DNA of 22,977 nt from an uncultured virus (IMG/VR IMGVR_UViG_3300027747_004168) (Duplodnaviria > Heunggongvirae > Uroviricota > Caudoviricetes). Positions within the stretch are counted from its first letter, which is position 1. Each line of letters starts with the position of its first letter. Below are positions 1-16,786 of the stretch, piece by piece. The position numbers were made by a program, and so were the translations under genes. The notes beneath the pieces were generated by a model. It saw nothing but the letters and a program-made list of their open reading frames with translations, was not told where the DNA came from and searched no databases. The stretch lies in IMG/VR virus record IMGVR_UViG_3300027747_004168; one strand, 5' to 3'.

Positions 1-922
1 TCAGCGGCTCGGCGTCCGACAGGCCGAAGTAGTCCCCGACGATCTCGTTCTTGGAGTTCACGGTGAACAGGCCCATGTACCTGTAGTCGCAGCACATCCT
101 CTTGAACATTTTGGGCGTCTTGAGGCAGTCGAGGTATATCTGGTCCGGCTCGGGGTTCTGCCTCGTCGGGTAGCAGGTGCCGTATATGATTTTCTTCACG
201 CCGATCTTGAGCAGGCTTTTGAAGAACTCCCTCTGCTTCTCCGGGTCGTACACTTCCTGCTGTATTGCCGCCTGGACGGTCATCCTCTCGCCCATCCCCA
301 GCTTGACCAGCCTCGCCAGGTTGCAGAATGTCCTTCTGTGCGGGTTGACCGACTTGTCGGCGGACTTCCGCTGCCAGTTGTGCTGGTCTTCGAGTCCGTC
401 GAGGCTCACGTCGACGTAGGACATTGACAGCAGTCTTACGGAGTCTGCGTCGAGGGGCAGGGCGAGGTTCGTGGTCAGCGAGCAGTTCACGTTCTCCTGG
501 CCGAACTCGCCGATTAGGCCTTCGAGGATTTCTAGGCACTCGCGGGCCTTGATGAGGCACTCCCCGCCCAGGAATGAGACGTTGAACTTCCTCGTCCCGT
601 ATCTCTCCTTGTGGGCTCGGCAAAGCCTGACGAGGTCTGCTGGGTCTATCTTGCACTCGTCTCTGGCCTTGAGGAGTCCCAGCACGCAACAGTGGTTGCA
701 CCTCAGGTTGCATTCCCACGTCGGCAGTATCCTGAGCGACAGTTCTTCTTTCGGCGGGCTGAACAGCCTCCTCTCGAGCGATTCCCCCTCCTGCCCCGCG
801 AGGAAGAGTCCGTCCTCGAGCTCGTCGAGCGGCGCGTCCTCTGGCAGGCTCTGCTGCGTCATGGTGTTGTAGAGGACGCCCTCCGTCCTGACAACGTACC
901 TAGATGTCAAATTATGCAGCAT
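1..922 (-). CDS. Radical SAM protein, anaerobic sulfatase maturase / SPASM-type peptide maturase-like; 3' end runs off the window
   Basis: Hand translation, as it is absent from the ORF track (no stop in the window): MLHNLTSRYVVRTEG...PTWECNLRCNHCCVLG...VSFLGGE...LTTN...VDVSLDG...HNWQR. The CxxxCxxC motif plus GGE, TTN and SLDG motifs are typical of this rSAM subgroup. The start overlaps the end of the upstream gene. Confidence 0.9.
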   Translation of the reverse strand, partial: MLHNLTSRYVVRTEGVLYNTMTQQSLPEDAPLDELEDGLFLAGQEGESLERRLFSPPKEELSLRILPTWECNLRCNHCCVLGLLKARDECKIDPADLVRLCRAHKERYGTRKFNVSFLGGECLIKARECLEILEGLIGEFGQENVNCSLTTNLALPLDADSVRLLSMSYVDVSLDGLEDQHNWQRKSADKSVNPHRRTFCNLARLVKLGMGERMTVQAAIQQEVYDPEKQREFFKSLLKIGVKKIIYGTCYPTRQNPEPDQIYLDCLKTPKMFKRMCCDYRYMGLFTVNSKNEIVGDYFGLSDAEPL

Positions 923-1995
923 ATGTTGTCCACCACCCTGCTTTTGTCGAAGCCCTTCCAGAACGTCGGATACTTGTATCTCCCAACAAGATAAGAGCGA
1001 TAGGGCATGTATTTCGCCTCGCGGCCTTTGAGGAATGAATTTATCTCGGCCCTGTCGTCCTCGGGCAGTCTGTTCTTCTCCCCGTGGTCGAACATGTCGT
1101 GGTATATGTGGAACACCCCGGGTTCCGCCTCTATGAACTGCATGTTCAGCATTCGGGATTTGATTTTGGTTATGAGCTCATGCCCCGAGAGGTATTCGCC
1201 GTCGATCATGGGCCTTTGCTTGTAGTGGGGTACGAACCTGTATTCGCATCTGGTCCTCCCGCACCCGCACGGCTCGAATCCTCGGACCTCCATGATGTCC
1301 GACTTCTTGAACGATGCCTTGGTCAGGTTCAGCAGGTTTGTGACTCTCCCGCCCCTCTCGGACCATATCGGCACTATGTGTCGTCCGCCGTGCTCGCACT
1401 CGTGGAAGTTGACGCCGGTCTTCCAGTCCACCATGCGGTCCAGAGCGTTGATCCTGCGCTTGTCGTAGAAGGCGTCCCAGCAGGACGAGAATATGCGGGC
1501 TTTGCCGGCCGCGAAGTACTCGGCCAGCGTGTCGTGGCATCCCATCATCATGACGACGTTGGGGAACGCCTCCAGCACCGCATCCCCCCTTTTCTCGAGC
1601 CTTCCGAGTAGGTACTCGGCGCCCTTTTCGCACGTGAGGTCCGCGAAGATCGAGTCGCCCAGTTCGGCGAACCGTTCGACCTGGTAGAAGTCGAATCTGC
1701 AGTTCAGCATGACGCGTCTCTTGCGGGACCGCCTCTGTCTCTCCTCGAATCCCCTCACCACATGGGTGCAGTTGGGGCCGAACGCGTATTCGGACTCCTC
1801 TTGGCCGGACCCGTTTGATTTCATCTGGCGCGCCTCCACGGGCTTGCGGAAGCCGCGGTGGACCTCCTCCATTTCGGCCATGTCTGACTCGTAGTTCGAG
1901 AAGTCGTATTCGAATGCGTTGTCCAGGAACTCCTCTGCGGACTCCCTGTCCAGCCTGTCTAGGTATCGGCGGTAGGACTCTGTCATCGCCGACAT
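907..1995 (-). CDS. Divergent phenylacetate-CoA ligase (PaaK/CapK)-like adenylate-forming protein
   Basis: C-terminal ~360 aa of the 907..2787 ORF, starting at MSAMTES (1995, GGAGG upstream) or MTES (1986, ATGA overlap). Contains a degenerate P-loop-like KSNGSG, FHECEHG, VTNLLN and PCGCGRT, reminiscent of the PaaK-like family. Confidence 0.55.
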   Translation of the reverse strand: MSAMTESYRRYLDRLDRESAEEFLDNAFEYDFSNYESDMAEMEEVHRGFRKPVEARQMKSNGSGQEESEYAFGPNCTHVVRGFEERQRRSRKRRVMLNCRFDFYQVERFAELGDSIFADLTCEKGAEYLLGRLEKRGDAVLEAFPNVVMMMGCHDTLAEYFAAGKARIFSSCWDAFYDKRRINALDRMVDWKTGVNFHECEHGGRHIVPIWSERGGRVTNLLNLTKASFKKSDIMEVRGFEPCGCGRTRCEYRFVPHYKQRPMIDGEYLSGHELITKIKSRMLNMQFIEAEPGVFHIYHDMFDHGEKNRLPEDDRAEINSFLKGREAKYMPYRSYLVGRYKYPTFWKGFDKSRVVDNICCII

Positions 1996-2630
1996 AGCTT
2001 CGCGTCCTCCTGGAAGACCTCCTCGAATCCGCCGAGTCTGCGGATGGAGAGCCTGTCGTACTCCGTTCTGCCTATTGCGAAGGTGTTCTTCGTCCCGAAG
2101 GCCCTTTCGATTTCCTCGTCGAGCCGGTCGTAAAGCATTATGTTTGTCTTCTCCGCGCCCAATCGGGCTATTATGCGGTGCTGGTGGAAGAAGTTGAAGA
2201 GCTTGAGCTTGTAGTCCGAGCCTTCGAACTCCACGACCTTTTCGTCTTCGGATGCGTCGGGTTCGTACAGCAGGTCGCCGTGCTTCACCTCGCACGGGAG
2301 AAGGGCCTTCTCGGCCCTCACGAATTCGGTGAATCTCATGTCCTTTATCCTCGTGAGCTCTTCGTACCTGCATCGGGCCGGGATGTCTTTCATTCTCTTG
2401 GTCGAAGACAGGGTGTTCTGTGCGGACAGCCAGATCGACGCGGCCCGCTCGATGGGGGTCCGCAGGACTATTTGCCTGACGAAGTCTCCGTACTCCTCCG
2501 GGACGGAGACCCTGTGTATCGGCAGCAGCTCTTTGCATTCGAATTTGGAGAGCAGGAGCGCGGAGACGGATCTGCTCGCGGTCCTCGGATTCCTGACGAA
2601 CACCCATCGCATCTTTTCGCAGACTATCAT
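1983..2630 (-). CDS. Sulfotransferase family 2-like protein
   Basis: N-terminal WVFVRNPRTASRSV matches the 5'-PSB loop pattern (FxHxPKTAGxS). LRTPIERAASIW matches the 3'-PB pattern (RxPxxRxxS). Coupled to the next gene by an overlap. Confidence 0.7.
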   Translation of the reverse strand: MIVCEKMRWVFVRNPRTASRSVSALLLSKFECKELLPIHRVSVPEEYGDFVRQIVLRTPIERAASIWLSAQNTLSSTKRMKDIPARCRYEELTRIKDMRFTEFVRAEKALLPCEVKHGDLLYEPDASEDEKVVEFEGSDYKLKLFNFFHQHRIIARLGAEKTNIMLYDRLDEEIERAFGTKNTFAIGRTEYDRLSIRRLGGFEEVFQEDAKLCRR

Positions 2631-2660
2631 GAGAGCATTTCAGAATAGTGGGCTTACAAC

Positions 2661-2700
2661 AAAAAAGGCCGGACGATGCTGTTTCCAACATCGTCCGGCC
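2661..2700 (-). terminator. Rho-independent terminator ending the non-coding transcription unit
   Basis: Minus strand GGCCGGACGATGTTG-GAAA-CAGCATCGTCCGGCC-TTTTTT: a 15-bp stem with one G-U pair, a GAAA loop and a U-tract. Confidence 0.9.
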
Positions 2701-3587
2701 TGGTCGGGCGGAAGAAGGTTTTGAGTCCGCTCGCGCTTTCGCGGAGGAACGAACTTCCCAAATTGGTCCGTCGCATGAAGGCAGCATCCCGGGTACTCTT
2801 CCACCGTTGGGCGATTTGCGCCCACCGCACGGTGACCCGTCTGCGACAGCCGTGGTCTGCTCCGGTCGCTCGCTGACGCCATGATCCTGCGGGTTGGGCC
2901 CTTGGCTCCGCCTGTTACCGGCGGTCCGCGTGGGGGCTTGTCCCTAGGGCGGTGCGTCGACTTGCGCCGGGCATTGGCCTCGGCACTCCTGCGTGTTTAT
3001 CGCGTTCAGGCTCCGCGTCGTTTCTGGGGAGTTTTTTGGTTGGACTCGACTGTCCCCTCCCTGGCTCAACACCGCTATGATCCGTCGCCACGGATGCTCC
3101 GCTCTGGCGGAGGGCTTTTGCCGGGGGGACTGCAACGTCCCCCGACTTACCCCGCGATGCAGCGATGACCGCCTCTTCGACTCGCACGGGACCCGGGGCT
3201 TTCGACCCGGGATGCGTTCCCGAACTTGTCGGCGGCGAACTTCGGACGTTTGTCCCGAGCTGGCATTTCTGACAACTAGGTTTATATCGCCCGACCATCC
3301 TCGCTCCGATGCCAGCCGTGGGTTTCCGAACAGGCTCCTCCCCGATCAGTGAAAGCGGGGTTTTGCCTTCTTCGTACGCTGCTGTGCCGATGTTGCCATC
3401 GGTTGCGCCGCGTCCTCGCCCTTTCTTGGCGGATTGGGCTTTTGTGGCCGCGGATTCCGTTTTGGGGAATCCGTCGGCTTGCCCACGGCTTCTGGTTTCT
3501 CGCCGCGACCCTCACGGGCCACGGCAAGGACTTGTGTTTGTCGAATTGTCAAAGATCGGCTCGGCTTCGCGTTACCGCGTCGTCGAT
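2701..3587 (-). ncRNA. Candidate large (~0.85-0.9 kb) highly structured non-coding RNA, in the GOLLD/ROOL size class; family unassigned
   Basis: No protein-like ORF in an otherwise gene-dense window. Bounded by a promoter and a terminator. Many GNRA-closed hairpins read on the minus strand. Long-range complementarities at 3288-3297/2701-2710, 3482-3489/3315-3322 and 3309-3316/3259-3266. Confidence 0.8.
3546..3579 (-). promoter_or_regulatory. rrn-leader-like boxB hairpin plus boxA antitermination element
   Basis: Minus strand CGCG-GTAA-CGCG hairpin (3579-3568) followed by GATCTTTGACAA (3557-3546), similar to rrn boxA (TGCTCTTTAACA / GATCTTTGAAAA types). Confidence 0.6.
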
Positions 3588-3593
3588 GGGCGC

Positions 3594-3621
3594 AGTATAT
3601 CGCATCCGTTCGTGTGTGCAA
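3594..3621 (-). promoter_or_regulatory. Sigma70-type promoter driving the candidate ncRNA
   Basis: TTGCAC-N16-TATACT on the minus strand, with an A-tract upstream. Confidence 0.7.
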
Positions 3622-3664
3622 GGCCCTTGTCCAATTTTTTTCTGGGAGCCTGTTTTTCAGGCGT

Positions 3665-4042
3665 CTAGGCCTGTTGCCTCTCGGGGGCCTCGGACTCCAT
3701 TTCTCTCTGGACTTCCTTGGCGATCCGCTCGCACTCCTCCTCCTCCTTGGCTTCGACCTCTACTTTGTTCCTCTTGAGGTTCCTCGCCAGTTCGGAGACG
3801 CCGAGAAGGCCGAGGAGAAGTGCGACCTGGAATCCCGGGAGCGGGACGAAGCCCCCCGCGAGGGTCCACGCGATGATGCGGTCTGCGGTCTTCTGGCCGT
3901 ATCTCTCGGCGAGGCGCTTCTTCTGTGCCTCTAGGCTTTCCGCGGCCTTCCTGACGATTGGGTTCTTATCGACCGTCAGCCAGTCGGCGACGGATTCCGA
4001 CTGGACTCTCCTGTCCATCCATTCTCTGAAGGTTCGGCCCAT
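3665..4042 (-). CDS. Hypothetical protein with N-terminal F-x-x-W tag and one hydrophobic segment
   Basis: 125 aa, MGRTFREWMDRR...; hydrophobic IIAWTLAGGFVPLPGFQVALLLGLLGV; TAAATA 5 nt upstream of the ATG. Confidence 0.8.
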   Translation of the reverse strand: MGRTFREWMDRRVQSESVADWLTVDKNPIVRKAAESLEAQKKRLAERYGQKTADRIIAWTLAGGFVPLPGFQVALLLGLLGVSELARNLKRNKVEVEAKEEEECERIAKEVQREMESEAPERQQA

Positions 4043-4047
4043 GAGAG

Positions 4048-4073
4048 TATTTATGGGTTTGGCGCACTAAATA
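4048..4073. promoter_or_regulatory. Divergent pair of TAAATA late-promoter-like motifs
   Basis: TAAATA-N5-ATG on both strands (4053-4048 minus, 4068-4073 plus) within a 36-bp intergenic gap. Confidence 0.65.
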
Positions 4074-4078
4074 CCGGC

Positions 4079-4387
4079 ATGAAGAGTTTTTCGCAGTGGA
4101 TGGAGGAGGCTTACCCCTCGGAACGCGGTCAGGAGTGGATCGATGCCGAAAGGAGGAGGCTTTTGGCCTGGCCCAGGGACAGGCTGATCGGCTGGCTGAT
4201 GTGGAACGACCGCAACGGGGTTTTCTCGGACGAGGACGCGGAACGAGAGGGGATGGATCCGATCACGGTGGAGGACGCCGTGGAGCTCGTCATGCAGCAC
4301 GTGGAGGAGAACCTCGAGACCCCAGAGGAGATGATGCGGTCTGCGCGTGGCCCGGTGGCCGGCGGTCAGTATTGGAATCGGCCCTAG
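4079..4387 (+). CDS. Hypothetical acidic protein with N-terminal tag
   Basis: 102 aa, MKSFSQWMEEAY...; protein-like composition; fills the gap between neighbouring genes. Confidence 0.8.
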   Translation: MKSFSQWMEEAYPSERGQEWIDAERRRLLAWPRDRLIGWLMWNDRNGVFSDEDAEREGMDPITVEDAVELVMQHVEENLETPEEMMRSARGPVAGGQYWNRP

Positions 4388-4398
4388 GCCCGTTCCGT

Positions 4399-5385
4399 TC
4401 AGGGAAGCAGGCTCTGTTTGATCATCGCCTCGGCCACCGCCTTTACCATGGGCGGCGGCACGGAGTTGCCGATCTGCCTTATCGCCGTGGAGTCTCTCGC
4501 GGGCATCTTGTGGCTTTGCGGGAACCCTTGGACGAGCAGGCATTCGGCTGGAGCGAGTCTCCGTACGCCATTGTCGTCGTACACCCAGAACCGTCCCGCT
4601 GACTCCTGCGATGGGATCGTCGGGTGTGTCCCGTCCGCGTGGTATATCCTGTTTGGCTGCTTGTGGAATCTGGAGAGGTGCTCCGTCCCCTCCCTCGTCC
4701 CCTTCTTTCGCGCGGGCTTGTTCCTGTACCCGACGAACAGCAGGCCCGATTTCTGTTGCCTCCACTTGTCGCGGGGCAGCAGCGTGTACTCCGATGGTTC
4801 CAGGACGGCCGCTGTTGTGGCGGATAGAATGGGTCTGATGGTGGGCGTGGGGCCGCATCTGTCCACCAGTCCGAAGTCAAACTTCTCCCTCAGGGAGGCG
4901 ACCATGATCGTCCTCTCCCTGTTCTGTGGCACCCCGAAGTCCTTGGCGTTGAGCACCTGCCAAGAGAAATGGTAGCCTTCTTCCTCGAGCATCGACCGTA
5001 TGGTGTCCAGCGTCCTTCCGCCGTCGTGCTTGGACAGGTGCTTGACGTTCTCTAGCAGCAGGGCCTGCGGCCTCTTGCTCTTGGCGATCCTGAGGATGTC
5101 GAAGAATAGAGTCCCCCTCGGGTCGTCGAAGCCCTTCTTCCTCCCGGCTATGCTGAAGCTCTGGCAGGGGAAGCCGCCGGCGAGCAGCTGGTGGTCGGGG
5201 ATTTGTTTCTCGTCGACCTTCGTTATGTCGCCGTCCGGGTAGTCGCCGAAGTTGCTTCTGTATGTCTCCCGGCAGTCGGGGTCGATCTCGGACGAGTAGA
5301 CGCACCTTCCGCCGCAGGCGTCCAGGGCGGTGCGGAAGCCCCCCATCCCCGCGAACAGGTCTATGTAGGAGAACTCGGCGTTCAT
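4399..5385 (-). CDS. C5-cytosine DNA methyltransferase 1
   Basis: MNAEFSYIDLFAGMGG (motif I), AGGFPCQSFS (IV), LLENV (VI), PQNRER (VIII), QIGNSV (X). The ATG at 5385 overlaps the upstream stop (ATGA). Confidence 0.95.
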   Translation of the reverse strand: MNAEFSYIDLFAGMGGFRTALDACGGRCVYSSEIDPDCRETYRSNFGDYPDGDITKVDEKQIPDHQLLAGGFPCQSFSIAGRKKGFDDPRGTLFFDILRIAKSKRPQALLLENVKHLSKHDGGRTLDTIRSMLEEEGYHFSWQVLNAKDFGVPQNRERTIMVASLREKFDFGLVDRCGPTPTIRPILSATTAAVLEPSEYTLLPRDKWRQQKSGLLFVGYRNKPARKKGTREGTEHLSRFHKQPNRIYHADGTHPTIPSQESAGRFWVYDDNGVRRLAPAECLLVQGFPQSHKMPARDSTAIRQIGNSVPPPMVKAVAEAMIKQSLLP

Positions 5386-6386
5386 CGGGGCATTCCGTCG
5401 AGGATGTGGGCGACTATGTCGACTGTCCACCCGTTGCCGAGCATCCTGTACCTCTGGGTGTCTGACACGGGGGACGTGTAGCCGTCGGGCACCGTCTGGA
5501 GCCTTTCGCACTCGAGGGGCGTCACGTAGCGAATGGCGAACTTGCCGGCAGGGAGGTCGCCCTCTCTCGTTATTCGGTGTTCCTTCCCGTCCTTCTCGGC
5601 GACGAGGAATCCGTCCTTGAGCGCTATTCTGATCGGGCCGGACTCCGGGTCCTTGCCTCCGTATACGGGGAACTTTGCCGGGTCCAGGCCCGGGTCCGCG
5701 TCGGCCACGCCGAAGAAGCGCTGCGAGCTGTACTTCTTGTGGTGGTTGGCCTCGAGCATCTGCATCTTCTCGTGGTCTTTGTGGATGGTGATAGGCCTGC
5801 CCTTCCTTATGCTCTCCGCGGCGAGCCACTGCATGGCCTTGTGCGTGTAGTAGTGCTTGTGCAACGCCGCCCCGCGCTCCCTGACGGACCCCCACGAGAC
5901 CTTCTTGTCGCCCGGCTGGGCGAGGCCCGGTATGTTCGTCCAGTACAGCCTCTTCCTGTTCTGTGCGGAGATAAGGTTTGAGTTGATGAGTGCGGGCTCG
6001 ACTCCTAGCGTCCTGCTGATGACTGCCTCGTACTCCTTCTTCATGACCACGTTCTCGAGCAGGAAGAACCGGGACTTGCACTCCTCCAGGATCCTGGCGT
6101 ACTCGAAGAAGAGCTTGCTCTCCGGGTGCTCGAAGTTCAGCTGGTTGCCCGCGAAGCTGAACCCTTGGCAGGGGCTTCCTCCGATGAGGATGTCGGGTCT
6201 GGGTATGTCGCGGGCGAAGACCTTGGTGACGTCGCCCAGGTGCTTTGTGTTTGGGAAGTTCTTCTTGGTGACGGCGATGGCGTCCTCGTCCACCTCGCTC
6301 GCCATGTAGAGGTCGGGTTTGATGTTGAGTTTTTCGAGCGCGAGCTGCCCGCAGCTCATCCCGTCGAAGAGGCTGAGTACGATCAC
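5382..6386 (-). CDS. C5-cytosine DNA methyltransferase 2 (phage Dcm-like)
   Basis: LSLFDGMSCG, GGSPCQGFS, LLENV, AQNRKR, ERLQT, LGNGW motifs; GTG start. Confidence 0.95.
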   Translation of the reverse strand: MIVLSLFDGMSCGQLALEKLNIKPDLYMASEVDEDAIAVTKKNFPNTKHLGDVTKVFARDIPRPDILIGGSPCQGFSFAGNQLNFEHPESKLFFEYARILEECKSRFFLLENVVMKKEYEAVISRTLGVEPALINSNLISAQNRKRLYWTNIPGLAQPGDKKVSWGSVRERGAALHKHYYTHKAMQWLAAESIRKGRPITIHKDHEKMQMLEANHHKKYSSQRFFGVADADPGLDPAKFPVYGGKDPESGPIRIALKDGFLVAEKDGKEHRITREGDLPAGKFAIRYVTPLECERLQTVPDGYTSPVSDTQRYRMLGNGWTVDIVAHILDGMPR

Positions 6387-6392
6387 TCACAT

Positions 6393-6870: not shown

Positions 6871-7680
6871 CTACACTGCTCGTCCCATGCCGGCCTTGGC
6901 GGCGGCCCGTCTTTTCCCGGCCTCCACTGCCTGCTGGTAGAGGTACGGATTGACGAGTATCATTTTGCGTCTGATCTCGTCCCTCTCCTCTTTGGTCTTG
7001 GCCGCCTTGTACATGTCCACGAGCCTCTTCCATTCCTCTGGCTGTGGCTTGGGGCGGTCGGGATCGACGCGCCGCATCGGAGCCTTATCTTGTTTTTCCT
7101 TCCTCTCTAGTTCCTTGAGGAAGGGCTTTGGGTCTGCGGGCTTCTGCGTTCGGACCGCCTTGGGCTTGGTCGTCCTCTCATCCGAACCCTTCTTCTCCTT
7201 CGTGTCCGCATTCTTTCCGTCCTTCCACGAGTCAAGTCCGACGAGGTCTTGGAAGGCGGTTCGGTCTTTGCTGCCGGGGGCGTAAAGCCCGGTTATCCCC
7301 AGCATGGGTTCGCTTACCGCTTGGGCCCCGCGCAGAATCGGGGAGACGCCCGTGGCGACACCCACTCCTTGGGCGATTCCTCTGGCGACCTTGCCTATTC
7401 CTGACCCTATGTTGTCAGAGGCTCGCCTGAAGGTCTTCTCGGCCTCTTCGTGGCCGCCACCTGCTCTCTGGGCCGCGGAAAGGACCCCCTGTCCGATCCC
7501 GTAGGTTCCTTGAAGAACCCCCGAGGAGACATTCCCTATGGCCCGTCCTGTCTGGGACAGGGCGTTGCCAGTCGCGCCGGCGGCGAATTTGAGAGCCGAA
7601 CCCAGCCACTCGTCGATGTGTTCGATGCCCTCGTCGAAGAGGGCCGCCTCTTCGTTCTCTATGAACTCCCTGAATTCCAT
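6871..7680 (-). CDS. Hypothetical Gly/Ala-rich protein with N-terminal tag (candidate virion internal protein)
   Basis: 269 aa, MEFREFIENEE...IDEWLGSALKFAAGATGNALSQTG; TACATA-N4-ATG upstream. Confidence 0.85.
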   Translation of the reverse strand: MEFREFIENEEAALFDEGIEHIDEWLGSALKFAAGATGNALSQTGRAIGNVSSGVLQGTYGIGQGVLSAAQRAGGGHEEAEKTFRRASDNIGSGIGKVARGIAQGVGVATGVSPILRGAQAVSEPMLGITGLYAPGSKDRTAFQDLVGLDSWKDGKNADTKEKKGSDERTTKPKAVRTQKPADPKPFLKELERKEKQDKAPMRRVDPDRPKPQPEEWKRLVDMYKAAKTKEERDEIRRKMILVNPYLYQQAVEAGKRRAAAKAGMGRAV

Positions 7681-7898: not shown

Positions 7899-8276
7899 TC
7901 ACCCCCAGATTCGGCGTGCCAAACCTAGGGCGAAAATCACCTTGCCGAGGGCGTTTCTCCTGCAGGATGCCGTCCTTTCGGCGTAGAAGTTCCGGAACTG
8001 CCCGTTGGGCATCTCGCAGGTCACGATCGTTTCTGTCCTGTGGAAGTCAGAGTCCCACTCCCTGTACCTGCTTTGGGCGTCAAGCCGTGCGATGTCCTGC
8101 TTGGTTAATTTCTTCACGGATACCACCCTCGCCAAATGCCTTGTGGTATCGCCGGATACGGGCTGCTGGTATTCGAAGTTGTACACCTGGCCGATCTTGG
8201 CCTCCGACAGGTTGTTGACGATCATGGTTCTGTTCCTTTCGTGTTTCTGGTAGGCGGGATTGTATTTCAGCGCCAT
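7899..8276 (-). CDS. Hypothetical beta-rich protein, possibly WYL/SH3-like
   Basis: C-terminal part of ORF 7899..8753, from MALKYNP (8276) or MIVNN. Pattern VYNFEY...TTRHLARV...GQFRNFYAER. The fold guess is weak. Confidence 0.6.
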   Translation of the reverse strand: MALKYNPAYQKHERNRTMIVNNLSEAKIGQVYNFEYQQPVSGDTTRHLARVVSVKKLTKQDIARLDAQSRYREWDSDFHRTETIVTCEMPNGQFRNFYAERTASCRRNALGKVIFALGLARRIWG

Positions 8277-9238
8277 GGCCTCGTCAACGCCGCCTTCATG
8301 TTTTCCGCGATCCTCCTGACAAGGGGTACGACAACTGCGTTGCCCGCCTGCTTGTAGATGTGGATGTCGGAGGTCTTGATGAAGAAGTTGTCCGGGAAGC
8401 CCTGAAGCCTGAGGCATTCTCCGGGCGTCAACTTCCTGATTCCGAAGTCGTCCCTGATGACAGGCACGTTGTGTCCGCCGCCACCCATGTTTGCGGTGAG
8501 TGTCGGGCATACGCCGTTCTTGTTCTCTCTCATGTACACCCTTCTCATCTGGTAGACGCTTGAGTTGACCATGGCCTTGTCCATCATTTCGTAGCAGCGA
8601 CTTTCGGTGGTGTAGTAGTACTTGTCGTCCTGTCTCTCGCCTCTGTTGAATATTTTCTCCAATGTGTTCGTCAGCGGTATCCCCGAGGGGAAGTCGAAGC
8701 TTGCCAGGACGCTCTCGTCCAGGAAGCCGACGATGAACATTCGCTCCCTGCACTGCGGCACGTTTCCGTGTGTGTGTCCCCCGAGGACCTCATGTTTGAT
8801 GTTGTAGCCGCAGTCGCGGAGGTGCTCGAGGATCACCTCGAAGTCCTTGCCGTGGTTGGTCGACTGGATGTTCTTGACGTTCTCCAGGAGTATGGCGTCG
8901 GGTCTCTTCTCCTTGAGGACTCGCACGATGTCGAAGAACAGGGTTCCCCTGACGTCTGCTAGACCGCCCCTCCTTCCTGCGAGCGAGTAGGGCTGGCAGG
9001 GGAAGCCGCCTGCGAACACGTCGAAGTCGGGGATGTCCTTCGGGTCAACCTGCCTTATGTCTCCCTCGTGCAGGTTGACCTCGGGATGGTTGGGTCTGTA
9101 GTTCTCGCACGCCTTCTTGTCGAACTCGTTCGCGTAGACGACATCGAAGCCGGCCTGCTTGAATCCGTAGCATATGCCGCCGATTCCTGCGAAGAAGGAC
9201 GCGACCCTGATCTTGGGCTCTATTGGGCGAGGGTTCAA
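8267..9238 (-). CDS. C5-cytosine DNA methyltransferase 3
   Basis: ASFFAGIGG, GGFPCQPYS, LLENV, PQCRER, QAGNAV; target recognition domain with CPTLTANMGGGGHNVP. The TTG start overlaps the upstream TGA. Confidence 0.95.
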   Translation of the reverse strand: MNPRPIEPKIRVASFFAGIGGICYGFKQAGFDVVYANEFDKKACENYRPNHPEVNLHEGDIRQVDPKDIPDFDVFAGGFPCQPYSLAGRRGGLADVRGTLFFDIVRVLKEKRPDAILLENVKNIQSTNHGKDFEVILEHLRDCGYNIKHEVLGGHTHGNVPQCRERMFIVGFLDESVLASFDFPSGIPLTNTLEKIFNRGERQDDKYYYTTESRCYEMMDKAMVNSSVYQMRRVYMRENKNGVCPTLTANMGGGGHNVPVIRDDFGIRKLTPGECLRLQGFPDNFFIKTSDIHIYKQAGNAVVVPLVRRIAENMKAALTRPWR

Positions 9239-10209
9239 GCGACCACCCCCATCAGGCTATTCGCCAGGTGGAAGGCGAGCCTCACGGGCACGGCGTTGCC
9301 TATCTGCTTGTACTTCTGGGAGACGGACCCGCAGAACTCGTAGGCGTCCGAGAACGTCTGTATCCGCGCGTACTCCCTGACGGTCAGCGGCCTCGTCTCT
9401 AGAGGGTGGCACCTGTCCGTCTGTTTCTGGGACGGGCTTGTGAGGAGCGTGAGCGAGGGCTGGTCCATGCTTAGCCTCCTTGCGAAACCCCTCATCCCGC
9501 CTCCGGATTTGAGGGCGTTCCCCATGTACTCTCTCTTCACGCCCTCTGGCAGGTCCACCCAGCATCCGCCCTCCGGGACCAGCTCCATGACCTTTCTCTT
9601 CTTCTCTGAGTACTGGATTCCCTCGCTGGGCGGCACGTCTTTCAGAGCGTCACGCAGCAACATTTTTTTGGACGTCGGCGCAGGGAATTCGTACTCTGTC
9701 TCTATGTCCTCCCGGACGCCGACGATTATCATCCGCTCGCGTCGCTGTGGCACCTCGTAGTCCGCGGCGTTCATCACCTTGTGGAGAACCCTGTACTTTC
9801 CTTCGTTGTGGAGGAGCTCGAGTACGGAACGCAGCGTCTCGCCCTTGTTGTGCGTTGCCAGGCCTCTTACATTCTCGACGAGGAAGGCCTTGGGGAGGCA
9901 CTCCATGAGGAGTCGGCTGAAGTCCAGTATCAGCCTGCCGCGGGGGTCTTCGAATCCCCTCCTCTCGCCGGCCTGGCTGAACGCCTGGCAGGGGACGCCC
10001 CCGATGAGAAGGTCGGGCCGCAGGCCTTCGAGAGACAGCAGCTCCATTCCGCACTCCCTGACCATGTCGCCGTGGGAGGGGTGGTTCCTGCGCAGGGTGG
10101 CGCAGCAGGATTTGTCTATCTCGTTTATCAAAAGGGGTTTAAAGCCGGCCTCGATGAACCCGGTACCAAGCCCCCCGCACCCCGCACAAACCTCCACGAA
10201 AGTCGGCAT
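9235..10209 (-). CDS. C5-cytosine DNA methyltransferase 4
   Basis: EVCAGCGG, GGVPCQAFS, LVENV, PQRRER, QIGNAV; target recognition domain with ARRLSMDQPSLTLLTSPSQKQTDRCHP. Confidence 0.95.
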   Translation of the reverse strand: MPTFVEVCAGCGGLGTGFIEAGFKPLLINEIDKSCCATLRRNHPSHGDMVRECGMELLSLEGLRPDLLIGGVPCQAFSQAGERRGFEDPRGRLILDFSRLLMECLPKAFLVENVRGLATHNKGETLRSVLELLHNEGKYRVLHKVMNAADYEVPQRRERMIIVGVREDIETEYEFPAPTSKKMLLRDALKDVPPSEGIQYSEKKRKVMELVPEGGCWVDLPEGVKREYMGNALKSGGGMRGFARRLSMDQPSLTLLTSPSQKQTDRCHPLETRPLTVREYARIQTFSDAYEFCGSVSQKYKQIGNAVPVRLAFHLANSLMGVVA

Positions 10210-11492: not shown

Positions 11493-11582
11493 TTAGGCTC
11501 CGCTCTCGATGATCCTTCTGCAATCGGGGCAAATTTCATTTTTGTCCGTCGTCTTTGTCTTGCAGAAGGTACAGACCGCCAT
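11493..11582 (-). CDS. 29-aa zinc-ribbon-like microprotein
   Basis: Hand translation MAVCTFCKTKTTDKNEICPDCRRIIESGA (CxxC-x10-CxxC). The ATG lies 2 nt after the upstream stop, with an AAGGA SD. Confidence 0.6.
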   Translation of the reverse strand: MAVCTFCKTKTTDKNEICPDCRRIIESGA

Positions 11583-11584
11583 TT

Positions 11585-14128
11585 TCATTCCTTGTATTTG
11601 TCGTATACATCCTTCAGTGGCGGGCCGCTCTTTGAGTGGAAGGCCTTTGATCTGACTGCCTCTTTCACCCTTTCCTCTCCGACTGCGTCTATGACCCCTT
11701 GTTTGTCGGGTGCGAAGGCGAAGATGGAGAGGAAGTCAAAGTTTTTGAGTTTTATGTTCTTGAGCGTGAATTCAATCAGCTTCTGCAGGTCGTCGGAATC
11801 CAGCTTCAGGTCGCCAAACAAATACGACAAATAGTCGTCTGCCTTTGACACTATTTTTTTTGCTGCGGACAGTTTGTCCGGTGCGTGTTTTATGAGTTTG
11901 AGCACATAAGTCCAATTTTCACCTCGATCCCATTTGAATTCTTTTTTGTCGTTTGCAATTTTGTCCGCGACCATTGTCTTCTGTTCTTCGTCCAAGCGGT
12001 CGCTGTCCATGATTTGGCTGATTTCATGGGGTCTCAGCTCGTTTGCGTCTATTTTTTCAAGGGCCTTCTTTTTGTCCTTTGCGGATATCAGGAGGGAGAC
12101 CATGTTTTTGTGGGACAAATTTGCGTGTATGTCGGCGAATTCGTCGGAAGCTCCCGGCTCCGACAGTCTCAGAACCATGTCGGCATCCTGTTCGGGGATT
12201 TTTTCCAATATCTTCTCGCCCAATATGTCTAGAATCCTCCTCTTTTGGGATGCCATGAGGAACAGGGATGCTATGGGGTTGTGGCCGTGTCTGGTCGTTG
12301 TCCAGTTCAGCAATTCCTCCTTGTTGTCCTCTGCGATTCGCTCCGCGAGCTTCTGTCTCTTTTCGCCCCTTAATTTGTTGAAGAAGTCTCCGCTGAACTG
12401 TCCGAAATAAAATTTCCCCACATCTCCTGGGTATATTCCGGAAAAGACGCCCTTCTTCTTAAGAAGAATATCCAGGGTCTTTTCTGGGTCGCTTGACTTG
12501 GTCACTAGATCGAAGGTCAGGGATCCGAGTGGTTTATCAAGGTGGCTGTTGATCACGCCCAGTATGACATTTTCTTTGTCTTTTGTTGTCGCCAGGATTC
12601 TGGCGAGTGAGCTGGCGTCCAAATTCGCGTGATTCTTGAAGATTTCATCTGATGCGGCCGGGTTGTGTGTGGAGTTCCATATTGAATGGAGGGTTTCCTT
12701 GTCTAGGACGCTAACTCTGTTGCCGAGCATCTTGATGATTTTTTCGGGACTCGGCGCGTGCCTTATGAGTGCATTGATGTCCTCGGGGCTGAGGTCTTTT
12801 TTGCTGGAGATGATCATTTCCGCGATCTTTTGATCTTCGTTCCTGAACTCTGGTCTTATATGGTAATTGGGCTTTATTTCCTCGTACTCGCCTTCCCATT
12901 CCTCGTCCTCGTCCTCGTGCTCTTCACCGTACTCGTCTACCCAGGCCCTCACTTTCTTTTTCATCCCGTCTAGCAAATGTATTATATTTTCCGTTGATAT
13001 TGAACTAAGGTCTACTATGCCTGGTCTGGTGAGCATTATGCTTTTCTCGCTGTTCGTCAGTTTCAGTGGCGTGTCGCTCCTTCCCGCCATGTTCTTTATT
13101 TTTTCTAGCGTTACTTCCACATAGCGTCTTTCTAGTTTTGTGCCCTTGATCAATTCGTACTGTTTATCGGTGAGTCCGACTCCGAATCCGATGTACTTGT
13201 TCTTGAGGTCCTCGGGCAGACTGGCGAACTGTTTGTCCGTCAGCCCACGGTCAAGCCTCACATATATGTCCATGTAGCGATTCTTTCGCTCGTACGGGAG
13301 TTTGGCGAACTTTTCGTCGCTGATGCCGCCGGAGAATTCCTTGTGATCCTGGCGTTCTTCCTGGGACAGGGCCACATTCTTGAATACCTCCTCAAGACCC
13401 GAGAGACTATTGTCTATTGCGGTTATCTCCCGCCACGACATGGGGTTGTCTCCGTCGTTGTTCGCGCTTGTTACGACATACTGTTTTCTTTCCGCGTCCT
13501 TGGGGTCGGCTCCTTTTATTACTTGGATCACGAAGAAGTGATACGGGTCCTTGAATCTGCCTTCGAAGCTGGTCTTGACCAGGTTCCAAAGTTTGAATTC
13601 CTCTTGTGTCTTTTTCTTGTTCTTTACGAAGTAGAAAGAGGGCTCGTTTTGTTTGAACCTGTAGGCGTGGTAGAGATTGCTCGCGTCGTTGCGGGCCACG
13701 CACCAGCCGTACGGTATGTTGCCCTTGTATTTGATGCACGCCCGGGGGCTGTCTGCGTGGTAGATGACAATTGATTCATTTTCGAATACGGGTTTGGCAT
13801 CCACCTCTACATCCTTGAAGTTGACTTTTCCGCTGAAGTCGACTTGTCCCTTGACATGATCCACGACGGCCTCTAGCTCTTCAAATGTCGGATATGCGTC
13901 TATGTTGTTTCTCTTGTTTGTCGGGACGCTTACGCTGGGCAGGGGGTCGTATATTTGCTTGTATTTTTTTGTTACTATGGTCTTGAACTCGTCTATGTAT
14001 TTTCTTACGGCCTCTCTGTTGGCATGTGGGTTTGCCTTGACGAACTTTTCAAGGGCGGTCTTGTAGTCTTCGTTAAGAGTGACGAGTTCTTTGTTTTCAA
14101 ACCATATTCTGAAGTTCATTTTATTCAT
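11585..14128 (-). CDS. Large (~847 aa) hypothetical protein with N-terminal tag, acidic patch and helical repeats
   Basis: Probable start MNKMNFRIWFENKE (14128, or 14119). Features ACIKY...WCVAR...SFYFV, the acidic DEYGEEHEDEDEEWEGEYEE, and repeated units (HANL..., LIRHAPSP, LIKHAPDK, FAFAPDK). Confidence 0.85.
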   Translation of the reverse strand: MNKMNFRIWFENKELVTLNEDYKTALEKFVKANPHANREAVRKYIDEFKTIVTKKYKQIYDPLPSVSVPTNKRNNIDAYPTFEELEAVVDHVKGQVDFSGKVNFKDVEVDAKPVFENESIVIYHADSPRACIKYKGNIPYGWCVARNDASNLYHAYRFKQNEPSFYFVKNKKKTQEEFKLWNLVKTSFEGRFKDPYHFFVIQVIKGADPKDAERKQYVVTSANNDGDNPMSWREITAIDNSLSGLEEVFKNVALSQEERQDHKEFSGGISDEKFAKLPYERKNRYMDIYVRLDRGLTDKQFASLPEDLKNKYIGFGVGLTDKQYELIKGTKLERRYVEVTLEKIKNMAGRSDTPLKLTNSEKSIMLTRPGIVDLSSISTENIIHLLDGMKKKVRAWVDEYGEEHEDEDEEWEGEYEEIKPNYHIRPEFRNEDQKIAEMIISSKKDLSPEDINALIRHAPSPEKIIKMLGNRVSVLDKETLHSIWNSTHNPAASDEIFKNHANLDASSLARILATTKDKENVILGVINSHLDKPLGSLTFDLVTKSSDPEKTLDILLKKKGVFSGIYPGDVGKFYFGQFSGDFFNKLRGEKRQKLAERIAEDNKEELLNWTTTRHGHNPIASLFLMASQKRRILDILGEKILEKIPEQDADMVLRLSEPGASDEFADIHANLSHKNMVSLLISAKDKKKALEKIDANELRPHEISQIMDSDRLDEEQKTMVADKIANDKKEFKWDRGENWTYVLKLIKHAPDKLSAAKKIVSKADDYLSYLFGDLKLDSDDLQKLIEFTLKNIKLKNFDFLSIFAFAPDKQGVIDAVGEERVKEAVRSKAFHSKSGPPLKDVYDKYKE

Positions 14129-14256
14129 GGCTGTTTTTTCGTGGGACCATCTTGAACTCAACGGAAAATCTGAAGGTGGTTCCCGTGGCCTCCGACGCCA
14201 AGCATTTCTATTTAGAGGCATTTTTTTCTTTTTGGGGTGTTTTGAATAGATATTGC

Positions 14257-15123
14257 ATGCTTAACTTCATTGAATTCGCGAAGGAAAAATCCAAAAAGAA
14301 AGTCGTTTTAATTGTAGGCTCCGCCCGAAGCCCCGAATGCTGCCCGGACGAGAAGAGCAAGACCCACAAGATCGCGGACTTCATCAGGGAAGGCTTCTCG
14401 GACTCCGTGTCCTTCGAGGTCGTCGACCTGTCCGTCAAGTGCGACGGGGTGACTGTCCAGCCCTGCAAGGGGTGCGTCAGCACGAGCGCGTTCCACTGCC
14501 ATTGGCGTTGCGACTGCTACAACAAGAAGGACGACCCGAACGACCTCATGCACAAGGAGGACGTCTACAGGAAGCTCGAGGAGTGCGACGGCTTCTTCGT
14601 GTTGACCCCCATAAACTGGAGCTCGTGTACCAGCGTCGTGAAGAGTTTCTTCGACAGGCTGGTCTGCGCGAGCCTTACGATCACGGCAGAGGAGGCGGAG
14701 GAACTGATGGACGGCGATGTCAAAGACTCCGCGAAGAGCAGGGGTCTGGAGGAATCCGGCAAGTACAACGGGATGCTCAAGAATCATCTCGAGGGTAAGA
14801 GGGCCGGTTTCTTCGCGCACGGGAACGAGGGCGGATCCGACTACATGGAGTTCGCCAAGAACAAGAGGAAGATGCTCCCCGTGATTCCAGACAGCCTCGC
14901 CGACTACGAGGACAGGCATGGACGGGAGGACGTCTCCGCTCTCCTGGACCCGCTCGTCAGGCAGTGCGTGTACTCCGGCATCCACGTCGACGACTGCTGC
15001 GTCCGGGTGGTGACCTACGGATTCGGCATCTCCTACGGGGAAGTCAACGACCTGTTCGATAGGGAGACCAAGTTGAAGGAGGAGGCGGCGGAGGTGTTCT
15101 CCAACTTCGTGGAGAGGCTCTAG
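14257..15123 (+). CDS. Flavodoxin-fold NAD(P)H-dependent FMN reductase / iron-sulfur flavoprotein family
   Basis: IVGSAR...SKT, PCKGCVSTSAFHCHWRCDCY, LTPINW...KSFFDRL. Probable start MLNFIEFAKE at 14257 with TAGATA-N4-ATG. Confidence 0.85.
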   Translation: MLNFIEFAKEKSKKKVVLIVGSARSPECCPDEKSKTHKIADFIREGFSDSVSFEVVDLSVKCDGVTVQPCKGCVSTSAFHCHWRCDCYNKKDDPNDLMHKEDVYRKLEECDGFFVLTPINWSSCTSVVKSFFDRLVCASLTITAEEAEELMDGDVKDSAKSRGLEESGKYNGMLKNHLEGKRAGFFAHGNEGGSDYMEFAKNKRKMLPVIPDSLADYEDRHGREDVSALLDPLVRQCVYSGIHVDDCCVRVVTYGFGISYGEVNDLFDRETKLKEEAAEVFSNFVERL

Positions 15124-15327: not shown

Positions 15328-16146
15328 ATGCGATTGAAAATCATCGTCCCGGCTCTGGCTTCCGTCGTGCTGGTCGGGTTCCTGCTTTCATTGAGGTTGC
15401 ACAGGTCGGAGAGTTGCGAGGCGGTGGAGGTGTCGCTGTCCGAGCCGTATTTGAGGGCCCTAGCGTCTCTCGGGAGGAAGTCCAGTTTCGAGTCGATCGT
15501 CGCCGCGGGCGGAGGCTCTCTGGTGGAGCGGTCGTGGGACGAGTTCAAGTTCGATCTAGGAAGGGTTCCGAGGCTTTCGACATGGGAGGTGCGAGGCCAT
15601 GGAAAATTCAAGGTGCGTTCGCAGGCGAGGGATTTCTCCGGCGAGATGGAGCTGATGCAGGACGTCGAGGCGGACAAGCACGGCATAGAGGTGTCCAGCC
15701 GACTTGCCCGACCGTGCGGGTTCGTGAAGGCCTACGAAACGAAGACCTCGATTCGAAACGAAACTCCCGTGGCCTTTCGGGTGGAGAACAGGATCGTGTA
15801 CGAGAGGCTCATCCCTTTCTGGATGGCGGACGATGTGGACAATCTCGTTCGGGATCACAACAAAAAGAAGGTCGAGGCCGTCGCCGAGGTGATCAGGTCG
15901 ATTGTTGAGGGAGACGCTCCTTCGCGCTATCCGGCGAACACCGCGCACCAGTATTTTCTGCCCCTGCTGTCTTCTTTGACCCCGAAGCCCGCCCTTCTGA
16001 ACCGCCCCGTGAGTATGTTCTGCCTGTGCGGCGGGCTATTCATCCAAGAGGAGAAGGCTTGCTCGTCGGTTTCCTGCCCCCATGCGATGTTTTCTCCGAC
16101 ATTGCCGTTATCCGCAGCCTCGGCGAGATTCGACATGGACGAGTGA
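15328..16146 (+). CDS. Membrane-anchored or exported hypothetical protein
   Basis: Probable start MRLKIIVPALASVVLVGFLLSL (signal or anchor). The last ~73 codons overlap the CAP gene on the opposite strand. Confidence 0.65.
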   Translation: MRLKIIVPALASVVLVGFLLSLRLHRSESCEAVEVSLSEPYLRALASLGRKSSFESIVAAGGGSLVERSWDEFKFDLGRVPRLSTWEVRGHGKFKVRSQARDFSGEMELMQDVEADKHGIEVSSRLARPCGFVKAYETKTSIRNETPVAFRVENRIVYERLIPFWMADDVDNLVRDHNKKKVEAVAEVIRSIVEGDAPSRYPANTAHQYFLPLLSSLTPKPALLNRPVSMFCLCGGLFIQEEKACSSVSCPHAMFSPTLPLSAASARFDMDE

Positions 16147-16361
16147 ACGAGCCGTCCCGAAGAGGCCATCCGTTCCGCGTGTTTCTGGGCGTAGGCGTGG
16201 AGGCCGTCGTCGAGAGACAGCTCTGCGAGTCCTTTTCTCCGCCTCTCCCTGTTGTGTTCGGCGAGCATTCCTGAGGAGGCCTTGAAAATCTTTCCCGGAA
16301 CGCCGACGCAGACCGCGGCCAGGACGGCCACTATTGCGCAGAGCGCAAGCCTTCTTCTCAT
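15927..16361 (-). CDS. Exported CAP (SCP/PR-1) domain protein
   Basis: Signal-like MRRRLALCAIVAVLAAVCVG; HNRER, AQKHAERMA, HS, GENIAWG, WMNSPPHRQNIL, YWCAVF. ATGA-coupled to the thioredoxin gene. Confidence 0.92.
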   Translation of the reverse strand: MRRRLALCAIVAVLAAVCVGVPGKIFKASSGMLAEHNRERRRKGLAELSLDDGLHAYAQKHAERMASSGRLVHSSMSNLAEAADNGNVGENIAWGQETDEQAFSSWMNSPPHRQNILTGRFRRAGFGVKEDSRGRKYWCAVFAG

Positions 16362-16786
16362 TTGTTCCTCTCCAGCCACGCGTCGTAGTCCGATTCGGAG
16401 AAGCCCACCCTTCTGGCCGTTTCTTTGCCGTTCTCGAGAATCACGGAGGTGGGCAGGGAACGCACCTGGTGTTTCTTCTTTAGTTCCGGTTGGGCTTCGA
16501 CATCGACCACGCATACGAGGCGTCCTTTGAGGTCGGACTCCTTGAGGTGCTCTTTGAGGAGGGTGCAGTAATGGCACCAATCGGCACCGAAGATTACGAG
16601 GACTTTCGCGTCCTTGATCGCTGATGCCTCCTCGTAGGTGTCTATGAAGGTCGGGCCGGCGATCGGAGCCTCCTGGACCTGCGGCGGGGGCGTCGGGTCG
16701 GGCTCTGGAGCCTCCCTCTGTTCCATCTTCAGGAACAAGGCCAAGAAGAGTAGCGATGTGGTGACCACGAGTGCCGCCTTTTTCAT
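16358..16786 (-). CDS. Exported thioredoxin-fold protein
   Basis: N-terminal hydrophobic segment; FGADWCHYC and SLPT cis-Pro motifs; AAGGAGG SD; TAAATA at 16833-16828. Confidence 0.9.
   Translation of the reverse strand: MKKAALVVTTSLLFLALFLKMEQREAPEPDPTPPPQVQEAPIAGPTFIDTYEEASAIKDAKVLVIFGADWCHYCTLLKEHLKESDLKGRLVCVVDVEAQPELKKKHQVRSLPTSVILENGKETARRVGFSESDYDAWLERNK

Follow-up and report, generated by a model that had tools for sequence, protein, structure and literature searches.

Probable gene for a large structured non-coding RNA of a new family in a freshwater phage-like element

The 22,977-nucleotide stretch of DNA analysed here (the window; IMG/VR record IMGVR_UViG_3300027747_004168, from an uncultured virus of the Caudoviricetes) contains a region at 2661-3621, read on the minus strand, that lies between two called genes, one for a 125-aa protein upstream and one for a 215-aa protein downstream. 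A previous reading of the letters without database searches (the sequence-only reading) had proposed that this region is a stand-alone gene for a highly structured non-coding RNA. We examined the region for expression, folding, coding potential, strain variation and diverged relatives, and consider it likely that the minus strand from 3534 to 2661 is the gene for a stable, abundant structured non-coding RNA of ~0.85-0.93 kb belonging to a new family outside Rfam. The RNA measures 840 nt in contigs from RNA libraries and 874-930 nt from the promoter or 5' end to the terminator. The parts of the gene are as follows.

3594..3621, minus strand: candidate promoter TTGCAC-N16-TATACT (TTGCAC 3621-3616, TATACT 3599-3594); uncertain.
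3535..3587, minus strand: possible 5' leader with hairpin CGCG-GUAA-CGCG (3579-3568), found by hairpin scan and conserved in the relative P0043.
2695..3534, minus strand: RNA body, the extent seen in RNA-library contigs.
3499..3528, minus strand: P1, a predicted 13-bp hairpin with a GUGA loop; mean pair probability 0.98, three G-U pairs.
3314..3490, minus strand: 5' domain, predicted to be closed by a 9-bp long-range helix (3490-3482/3322-3314); pair probability 0.97.
3478-3447 (CGGAUUCC/GGAAUCCG) and 3402-3387, minus strand: hairpins inside the 5' domain, from the predicted fold.
3258..3277, minus strand: predicted hairpin with a GAAA loop; pair probability 0.98.
3178..3231, minus strand: variable stem-loop with CCCGGG-UCGAAAGC-CCCGGG; helix probability 0.97-0.99.
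3042..3143, minus strand: conserved central run of hairpins (3143-3124, 3112-3097, 3095-3080 and 3055-3042), from the relatives and the fold.
2702..2948, minus strand: 3' domain, including hairpin CCGCC-GGUAACA-GGCGG (2924-2908), from a single-sequence fold.
2661..2701, minus strand: intrinsic terminator, a stem of 16 bp (2701-2666) capped by a GAAA loop and followed by a U run; from a terminator scan.

A word index of public sequencing runs returned the stretch 2300-4100 from freshwater and lake samples only. DNA runs contained up to 100% of its sampled words, and eight metatranscriptome runs from six studies contained 15-37%. We mapped the contigs of four RNA runs, one each from four lake or freshwater studies, on 2300-4100. 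All eight contig pieces, from all four runs, fell inside 2695-3534, and the flanks 2300-2694 and 3535-4100 were covered by no RNA contig in these runs. The contig from X6 covers 2695-3534 (840 nt) and that from X5 2766-3502; three pieces from X10 span 2707-3529 and three from X12 span 2711-3524, and both of these sets break within the stem-loop 3178-3231. The 5' limits lie at 3534, 3529, 3524 and 3502 and the 3' limits at 2695, 2707, 2711 and 2766, the first three of the latter in or just before the terminator stem. In X6, letters foreign to the window follow directly after 3534; we take these to be Illumina adapter, which would mean that sequenced fragments ended there. This contig pattern is what a stable, abundant RNA next to poorly expressed genes would give.

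The region folds better than chance. The minus strand (930 nt) reached a minimum free energy (MFE) of -423.9 kcal/mol, compared with -365.4 +/- 8.1 for 20 dinucleotide shuffles (z -7.2), an outcome that agrees with the sequence-only reading, which had named this comparison as a check; the plus strand gave z -4.0. A local scan of the minus strand (152 windows of 300 nt, 15 shuffles each) returned negative values for all nine windows between 2401 and 3900 (-0.8 to -8.4), with the minimum z of -8.4 at 3301-3600 and a lowest value elsewhere of -3.9. Minus-strand windows at 6901-7200, 9001-9300, 12451-12750 and 13951-14250 had z of -3.1 to -3.9, and all of them lie inside open reading frames (ORFs).

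Nine hairpins had been written out from the minus strand by the sequence-only reading, and six of these pair in the register as written. Ten of ten positions pair, two as G-U, in GCCGTGGCCC-GTGA-GGGTCGCGGC (3525-3502), six of six in CCGATG-GCAA-CATCGG (3402-3387), seven of eight in CCCGGGTC-GAAA-GCCCCGGG (3211-3192) and three of three in CGC-GAAA-GCG (2743-2734); the stems CGGATTCC/GGAATCCG (3473-3466/3458-3451) and GGGGGAC/GTCCCCC (3143-3137/3130-3124) also pair. The remaining three are unpaired as written and require another register: CGCCAA-GAAA-GGGCG; ATCCGTG-GCGA-CGGAT, which is better drawn as the 6-bp AUCCGU-GGCG-ACGGAU; and CCGCCG-GTAA-CAGGCGG, better drawn as the 5-bp CCGCC/GGCGG. When GNRA hairpins were counted strictly, with at least four contiguous pairs closing a GNRA tetraloop, the minus strand held five in the 0.93 kb of the region compared with 13 in the other 22 kb, a roughly ninefold difference in density (5.4 versus 0.59 per kb), and the plus strand of the region held none. 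The assignment of the structure to the minus strand on GNRA and G-U polarity stands for the GNRA hairpins (five versus none) and for P1 with its three G-U pairs, but overall the G-U pairs, which are 19 of the 278 predicted minus-strand pairs and 32 of the 293 plus-strand pairs, do not discriminate between the strands.

Variation among natural strains avoids the predicted stems. At 22 distinct sites the contigs from the RNA runs disagree with the window, and we compared these sites with the MFE fold of 3534-2661. Eighteen are at unpaired positions, which make up 36.8% of the 840 covered positions (binomial p 2e-5), and a Mann-Whitney test on the pairing probabilities of the variant sites also gave p 2e-5. 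The excess holds within single nucleotides (four of five variants at C are unpaired, compared with 26% of all C, and three of four at G, compared with 22% of all G) and so does not merely reflect the A-richness of loops. The same test on the plus-strand fold was weaker (13 of 22 unpaired, p 0.01). Pairing is kept by two of the four variants that fall in stems (2833, A-U to G-U; 3137, C-G to U-G). By position modulo 3 the sites divide 6/9/7, without codon periodicity. Only one of the 22 falls in the 3' stretch 2695-2948, and the structure predicted for the 3' domain (2905-2702) is based on a single-sequence fold together with this near-absence of strain variation.

Several observations bear on whether the region encodes a protein. 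Pfam returned no family for the four region ORFs tested, stops occur in every frame of the window region, and an exact look-up in a collection of 15 billion proteins found none of the nine region ORFs of at least 78 aa; the flanking 125-aa ORF was present in that collection. A search of 1.84 billion protein representatives with the longest internal ORF (2915-3298, 127 aa) gave four matches. One of them, P0045 (968 aa, E 1e-6), was excluded from every count as a repetitive protein of an insect. The three that we kept come from short metagenome contigs: P0043 (233 aa, 71% identical, in a cluster of four members), P0044 (90 aa) and P0046 (176 aa), the last two each 42% identical. In the homologous stretch of relatives, gene callers had predicted ORFs of 233, 229, 176, 127 and 90 aa. 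By tblastn, P0043 aligns across three frames of the window, with residues 6-60 at 3603-3445 in frame -1 (residues 6-31 at 3603-3526), residues 29-92 at 3533-3339 in frame -2 and residues 92-231 at 3343-2924 in frame -3, and P0046 maps to 3337-3035 in frame -3 and to 3153-2905 in frame -1. Similarity that runs on through shifts of frame, in a window with stops in all frames, shows that the nucleotide sequence is conserved and not a reading frame. Homologues that kept a frame would have spoken against the sequence-only reading, by its own account; none does so, and the relatives map in differing frames. U makes up 12.7% of the RNA, and this low content, which makes stop codons rare, accounts for the long open frames in the relatives. 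The most conserved stretch in all three is 3042-3143 (protein motif ASVAT[DE]...EPGR...LPRND), and within the 3' domain the relatives reach down only to 2905. The RNA is expressed and is not protein-coding. At the nucleotide level, blastn searches with 2661-3621 found nothing in GenBank phages or PLSDB plasmids, three DNA patterns in viral contigs and one 20-mer in metagenome contigs found no match, and a self-BLAST within the window found no second copy of the region.

We reconstructed the nucleotides of the relatives by parsimony, taking at each aligned codon the codon or codons closest to those of the window. Counting amino-acid-changing differences only, 89 of 680, 74 of 264 and 102 of 433 positions changed in the three relatives. 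The relatives cover 314 pair-cells of the MFE fold; both sides changed in 31 of these, of which 23 remain canonical. Sliding the 3' partner by 1-4 positions either way gave 9-23 both-sided changes with 6-12 canonical. Rotations of the change vector, 245 in all, produced 15.8 +/- 4.3 both-sided changes and never more than 26. Relative to a background canonical chance of 0.47-0.54 among non-predicted pairs, 23 of 31 corresponds to a binomial p of 0.007. In helices with a pair probability of at least 0.9, 14 of 19 both-sided changes are canonical, and all five that break a pair belong to the stem-loop 3231-3178, for which P0043 aligns poorly.

The clearest reconstructed changes, hairpin by hairpin, are as follows. 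In P1 of P0043, 3524/3503 and 3518/3509 would go from C-G to U-A, 3519/3508 from G-U to Y-A, and a change at 3505 would give G-U; all eight changes fit the hairpin, the loop GUGA becomes GAGA and no pair is broken. Hairpin 3277-3258 shows double changes at 3275/3260, 3271/3264 and 3270/3265 in P0046 and at 3277/3258 in P0043, with its loop going from GAAA to GGAA in P0046 and one pair-breaking change at 3276/3259. The outer stem of the stem-loop 3231-3178 would be kept in P0044 through double changes at 3228/3181, 3225/3184 and 3222/3187, and 3109/3100 is doubly changed in both P0044 and P0046. Small hairpin 3055-3042 has double changes at 3054/3043 (P0044) and 3052/3045 (P0046). The loop GCAA at 3396-3393 would read GCGA in P0043, so that three GNRA loops (GUGA, GCAA and GAAA) change to GAGA, GCGA and GGAA with GNRA kept each time. 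Hairpin 2924-2908 is unchanged in P0046, with the adjacent pair 2928/2906 going from C-G to U-A, and the helix 3490-3482/3322-3314, the only long-range helix with support from a relative, is unchanged in P0043. RNAalifold on a gapped pseudo-alignment gave a poor consensus, with 43 of 278 pairs in common with the single-sequence MFE, and was set aside. This indirect evidence is suggestive of base pairs kept in the relatives. We conclude that selection, purifying or compensatory, acts on the stems and GNRA loops, the part that comes from covariation being suggestive.

The terminator that had been proposed at the minus-strand 3' end is present, with a G+C-rich 16-bp stem, a GAAA loop and a T run; it is the sole terminator-like site in 1800-4600, and its U run is on the minus strand. 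Of the proposed promoter, both hexamers exist, but TTGCAC matches TTGACA at three of six positions. With TATACT as the -10 element, transcription would be predicted to start near 3587; in P0043 this candidate element would read TAAACT, and the stretch 3603-3534, including the hairpin CGCG-GUAA-CGCG, is conserved. None of the eight RNA-library contig pieces covers the leader 3535-3587 or extends past 3534. The 5' end may reflect a ~53-nt leader cut at an A-rich site at ~3534, a start at that site from an unrecognised promoter, or loss in assembly. As the scan of 1800-4600 found no terminator between the RNA and the upstream 125-aa gene, processing from a longer transcript is also possible. Within the RNA, GCAUCCCGGGU (3215-3205) and ACCCGGGAUGC (2794-2784), 432 nt apart, form a perfect 11-nt complement (plus-strand fold), which rivals the local CCCGGG hairpin and could serve as a switch, as a contact between molecules or as a long-range helix. 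The loop of hairpin 3143-3124 carries a conserved self-complementary UGCA, and the RNA contains three CCCGGG palindromes.

The whole window had no match in Rfam 15 at the gathering score. At E <=10 over 2400-3900, 2650-3150 and 3100-3625 there was only noise, namely SorX, ncS037 and ncS025 on the terminator, chrB-b on one hairpin, and one miRNA, one lncRNA and one Streptomyces sRNA model; GOLLD, ROOL, OLE, raiA, HEARO, RNase P, tmRNA and the group I and II introns were without a match even at this threshold. The sequence-only reading had called for this search and had left a choice between a divergent member of the GOLLD and ROOL kind and a new class; the lack of any Rfam match favours the new class and speaks against membership in GOLLD or ROOL. 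GOLLD is ~800 nt long, and the RNA described here resembles it in being very large (~870 nt) and in consisting of many hairpins with A-rich linkers. Both are also found in lake water and in a phage or prophage context, as GOLLD is described in PMC5737381 and bioRxiv 10.1101/2024.12.08.627333. They differ in that the GOLLD covariance model is unmatched here and in that GOLLD, according to PMC5737381, is often beside tRNAs, whereas ARAGORN found no tRNA gene and no tmRNA in the 23-kb window; such a context characterises GOLLD without defining it. ROOL (Rumen-Originating, Ornate, Large) is likewise described as a large ornate RNA with multistem junctions that is sometimes used by phages; it averages 581 nt (PMC5737381) compared with ~870 nt here, the present RNA is from freshwater and not from rumen or gut, the Rfam model is unmatched and no tRNA is nearby. 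We did not file the RNA under GOLLD or ROOL because their covariance models are unmatched and the frequent tRNA neighbours are lacking. OLE and raiA are large or abundant structured bacterial RNAs conserved by covariation, as presented in PMC12968392 and bioRxiv 10.1101/2024.12.08.627333. They are chromosomal in Bacillota and Actinobacteria and not phage-borne, and neither has an Rfam match here. Searches of full-text literature turned up no account of this RNA.

The central claim of the sequence-only reading, a stand-alone structured non-coding RNA on the minus strand, is supported by the confined expression, the absence of a conserved frame, the avoidance of stems by strain variants and the reconstructed compensatory changes. 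Several observations weigh against it. Assembled contigs reveal neither strand nor true ends, and their shared stops are a weak hint, as is the absence of RNA contigs from the flanks. A consensus promoter scan of 1800-4600 passed no sigma-70-like site. For 3534-2661 the plus strand attains an equal absolute MFE (-406.7), and the strand asymmetry thus comes from the composition-matched expectation and not from raw stability. Two strain variants, 3001 G>U and 3469 U>C, break predicted pairs. The covariation is a back-inference from three translations of spurious ORFs, is blind to synonymous changes and depends on protein alignments; pairing survives 21 of the 59 one-sided changes, which is no enrichment over a background of 0.30-0.33, and the rate of reconstructed change shows no difference at paired versus unpaired positions (Fisher p 0.35-0.43). 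Compensated pairs may look broken in this procedure because synonymous changes of the partner are hidden, as at 3095, a third codon position opposite the changed 3080. Finally, P0043 keeps an open frame of 233 codons, for which the chance from composition is ~0.002 per frame.

All genes from ~10,200 to 1 are on the minus strand, and the two neighbours of the RNA gene are as follows.

1983..2630, minus strand: downstream neighbour, gene for a 215-aa protein; homologues P0004 (99%) and P0005 (70%) are called as proteins.
3665..4042, minus strand: upstream neighbour, gene for a 125-aa protein; the exact sequence is in the protein collection from three contigs, the longest of 146,977 bp.

Neither flanking protein has a Pfam or PHROG match. 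The 3' part of the upstream gene (3601-3900, minus strand) gave a folding z of -3.9, and a long imperfect hairpin at 3728-3826 in this gene drew a noise match to a microRNA model. The 215-aa gene is followed by genes for a 362-aa protein (907-1995), which has invariant Cys and His columns, and for a radical SAM/SPASM-type enzyme (2-922). An ORF of 626 aa that apparently runs from 2787 through the terminator is an artefact, as the protein collection has separate 362-aa and 215-aa products. These three downstream genes (window 1-2630) stay together in relatives (P0003 and P0011, both from 9,314-bp contigs) and may form a modification cluster; the stretch RNPIERAAS in the 215-aa protein may be sulfotransferase-like. 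Further upstream are three minus-strand genes for C5 DNA methyltransferases (4399-6390, 8267-9238 and 9235-10209; Pfam E 1e-76 to 4e-86), the first of which carries an unassigned N-terminal half of ~339 aa. Three methyltransferases within 6 kb suggest that the element's DNA is shielded from several restriction systems.

A gene at 21378-22673 on the minus strand, 18 kb from the RNA gene, encodes a 431-aa ArdC-N-like protein, and the protein's nearest ESM Atlas clusters are 95-100% viral (Uroviricota). Two IMG/VR fragments, L001 and L002, carry ArdC-like copies that are 59% and 80% identical, and ~5 kb of their gene order is common to 17.6-22.3 kb of the window. CheckV rates these fragments, at 55 and 40 kb, as 11% and 8% complete, and from this low completeness we infer a genome class of several hundred kb; proteins of the window are also recorded on a contig of 146,977 bp. 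Both fragments end before the RNA locus and have no BLAST match to the RNA, and the last 7 kb of the L001 contig contain no large gene-free gap. We read the element as a large freshwater phage, with a plasmid as the alternative. The window also has an island of lower G+C at 11500-14500 (46-50% compared with 57-63% around it) with an 878-aa ORF (11585-14221, minus strand) that has no Pfam or PHROG match, a gene for a caspase-family (Peptidase_C14) protein at 19175-20134 on the plus strand that is common to the IMG/VR relatives, and a gene for a CAP/SCP-domain protein at 15927-16580 on the minus strand. Searches for syntenic loci found none through the 362-aa family in viral, metagenome or genome contigs or by tblastn against plasmids and phages, none through the 663-aa methyltransferase in viral contigs, and none through the radical SAM family in viral contigs or by tblastn against phages. 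In genome contigs the radical SAM family gave 38 loci, which we rejected as relatives of the element; they are generic genes, 24-33% identical, from gut and rumen metagenome-assembled genomes (MAGs), 37 of them Bacteroidota or unnamed and one an archaeal MAG.

Other explanations of the region were weighed against a stand-alone RNA gene. It could be a giant cis-acting leader, that is, the 5' untranslated region of the operon of the 215-aa, 362-aa and radical SAM genes with the terminator as a regulated attenuator. The RNA lies on the same strand as these genes, its terminator stops 30 nt short of the ATG at 2630 with no promoter-like site between it and the 215-aa gene, and the genes are kept together in P0003 and P0011. 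However, the terminator is a 16-bp G+C-rich stem with a U run for which no alternative antiterminator was identified, RNA contigs stop at it in three of four runs and none continues into 2300-2694, and a length of ~870 nt is far beyond known leaders, with no riboswitch or leader family of Rfam matching. We therefore regard a leader as improbable. It is very improbable, in our view, that the RNA is transcribed, stable and folded but functionless, whether as a spacer, as a remnant in decay or as a piece of a longer transcript that resists degradation. In favour of this, it has no known function, partner or ligand, its 5' end at 3534 is in a single-stranded, A-rich stretch where processing could occur, and the family is rare, with three relative lineages among the 1.84 billion representatives. 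Yet stems are preserved at two depths of divergence, GNRA loops stay GNRA, and relatives with spurious translations only 42% identical retain the central part.

The explanation by coding, in which the region would encode one or more small basic proteins, with the 233-aa ORF of the relative intact and the window copy a frameshifted pseudogene, draws on the ORFs called in relatives and on the low chance of the 233-codon frame. It is largely refuted and we give it very little weight: similarity crosses frames in two independent comparisons, the ORFs tested lack a Pfam match, stops are rare at this U content, and strain variants avoid stems without codon periodicity, with the reconstructed changes compensating pairs. 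The least credible alternative to us is an element that acts as DNA, such as a replication or transfer origin or a single-strand promoter of a conjugative leading region, with the hairpins formed in DNA. Plasmid leading regions are linked with methyltransferase and ArdC-like genes, and the window has three C5 methyltransferase genes and an ArdC-like gene nearby; the plus strand, too, folds better than shuffles. By contrast, RNA libraries show the region with sharp bounds and missing flanks, the GNRA loops, the G-U pairs of P1 and the terminator all belong to one strand, and the nearest clusters of the ArdC-like protein are almost entirely viral.

For a stand-alone structured RNA, the following course can be proposed. 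Transcription would start near 3587 or at ~3534 and end at the strong intrinsic terminator; the RNA accumulates far above the mRNAs of its neighbours. The phage would make it during infection, and it may act in trans as a folded scaffold or self-assembling particle; action in trans is suggested by the strong terminator, the accumulation without the neighbouring genes and a size beyond that of known leaders. GOLLD and ROOL are described as forming multimers free of protein by way of kissing loops and A-minor contacts, GOLLD as a homo-oligomeric nanocage of 14 copies and ROOL as RNA-only nanocages (bioRxiv 10.1101/2024.12.08.627333). By analogy, a particle could be held by contacts of GNRA loops with A-rich linkers, and candidate multimer contacts are these two elements, the UGCA loop at 3143-3124, the CCCGGG repeats and the 11-nt complement 3215-3205/2794-2784. 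A trans-acting scaffold is our best guess at a mechanism and is drawn from this analogy. Even if the RNA is of a new family, a multimeric scaffold would be possible but doubtful, and we think it unlikely that it is the founding member of a class of giant ornate RNAs in very large freshwater phages that forms a protein-free symmetric multimer used in host takeover or counter-defence. Such a role is a speculation from where the RNA gene lies, in what seems to be an anti-restriction region, among the methyltransferase genes and 18 kb from the ArdC-type gene.

Few bacterial and phage RNAs are of this kind. Those above ~500 nt with conserved intricate folds are given in PMC5737381 as rRNAs, group II introns, GOLLD, ROOL and OLE; the motifs in a catalogue of phage structured RNAs average 67 nt (PMC10690425), and by cryo-electron microscopy three such large RNAs are described as building protein-free multimeric assemblies (bioRxiv 10.1101/2024.12.08.627333). 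The RNA described here would add an uncatalogued class to the few giant ornate microbial RNAs, a kind already known from GOLLD and ROOL. Its relatives could be found through spurious proteins predicted by gene callers, a route by which relatives of a non-coding RNA can be traced. The RNA is phage-borne and abundant enough to assemble from the lake metatranscriptomes of several independent studies, and a further class unrelated to the known ones would be a new test case for what giant RNAs do and for whether RNA-only assemblies are a general strategy of phages.

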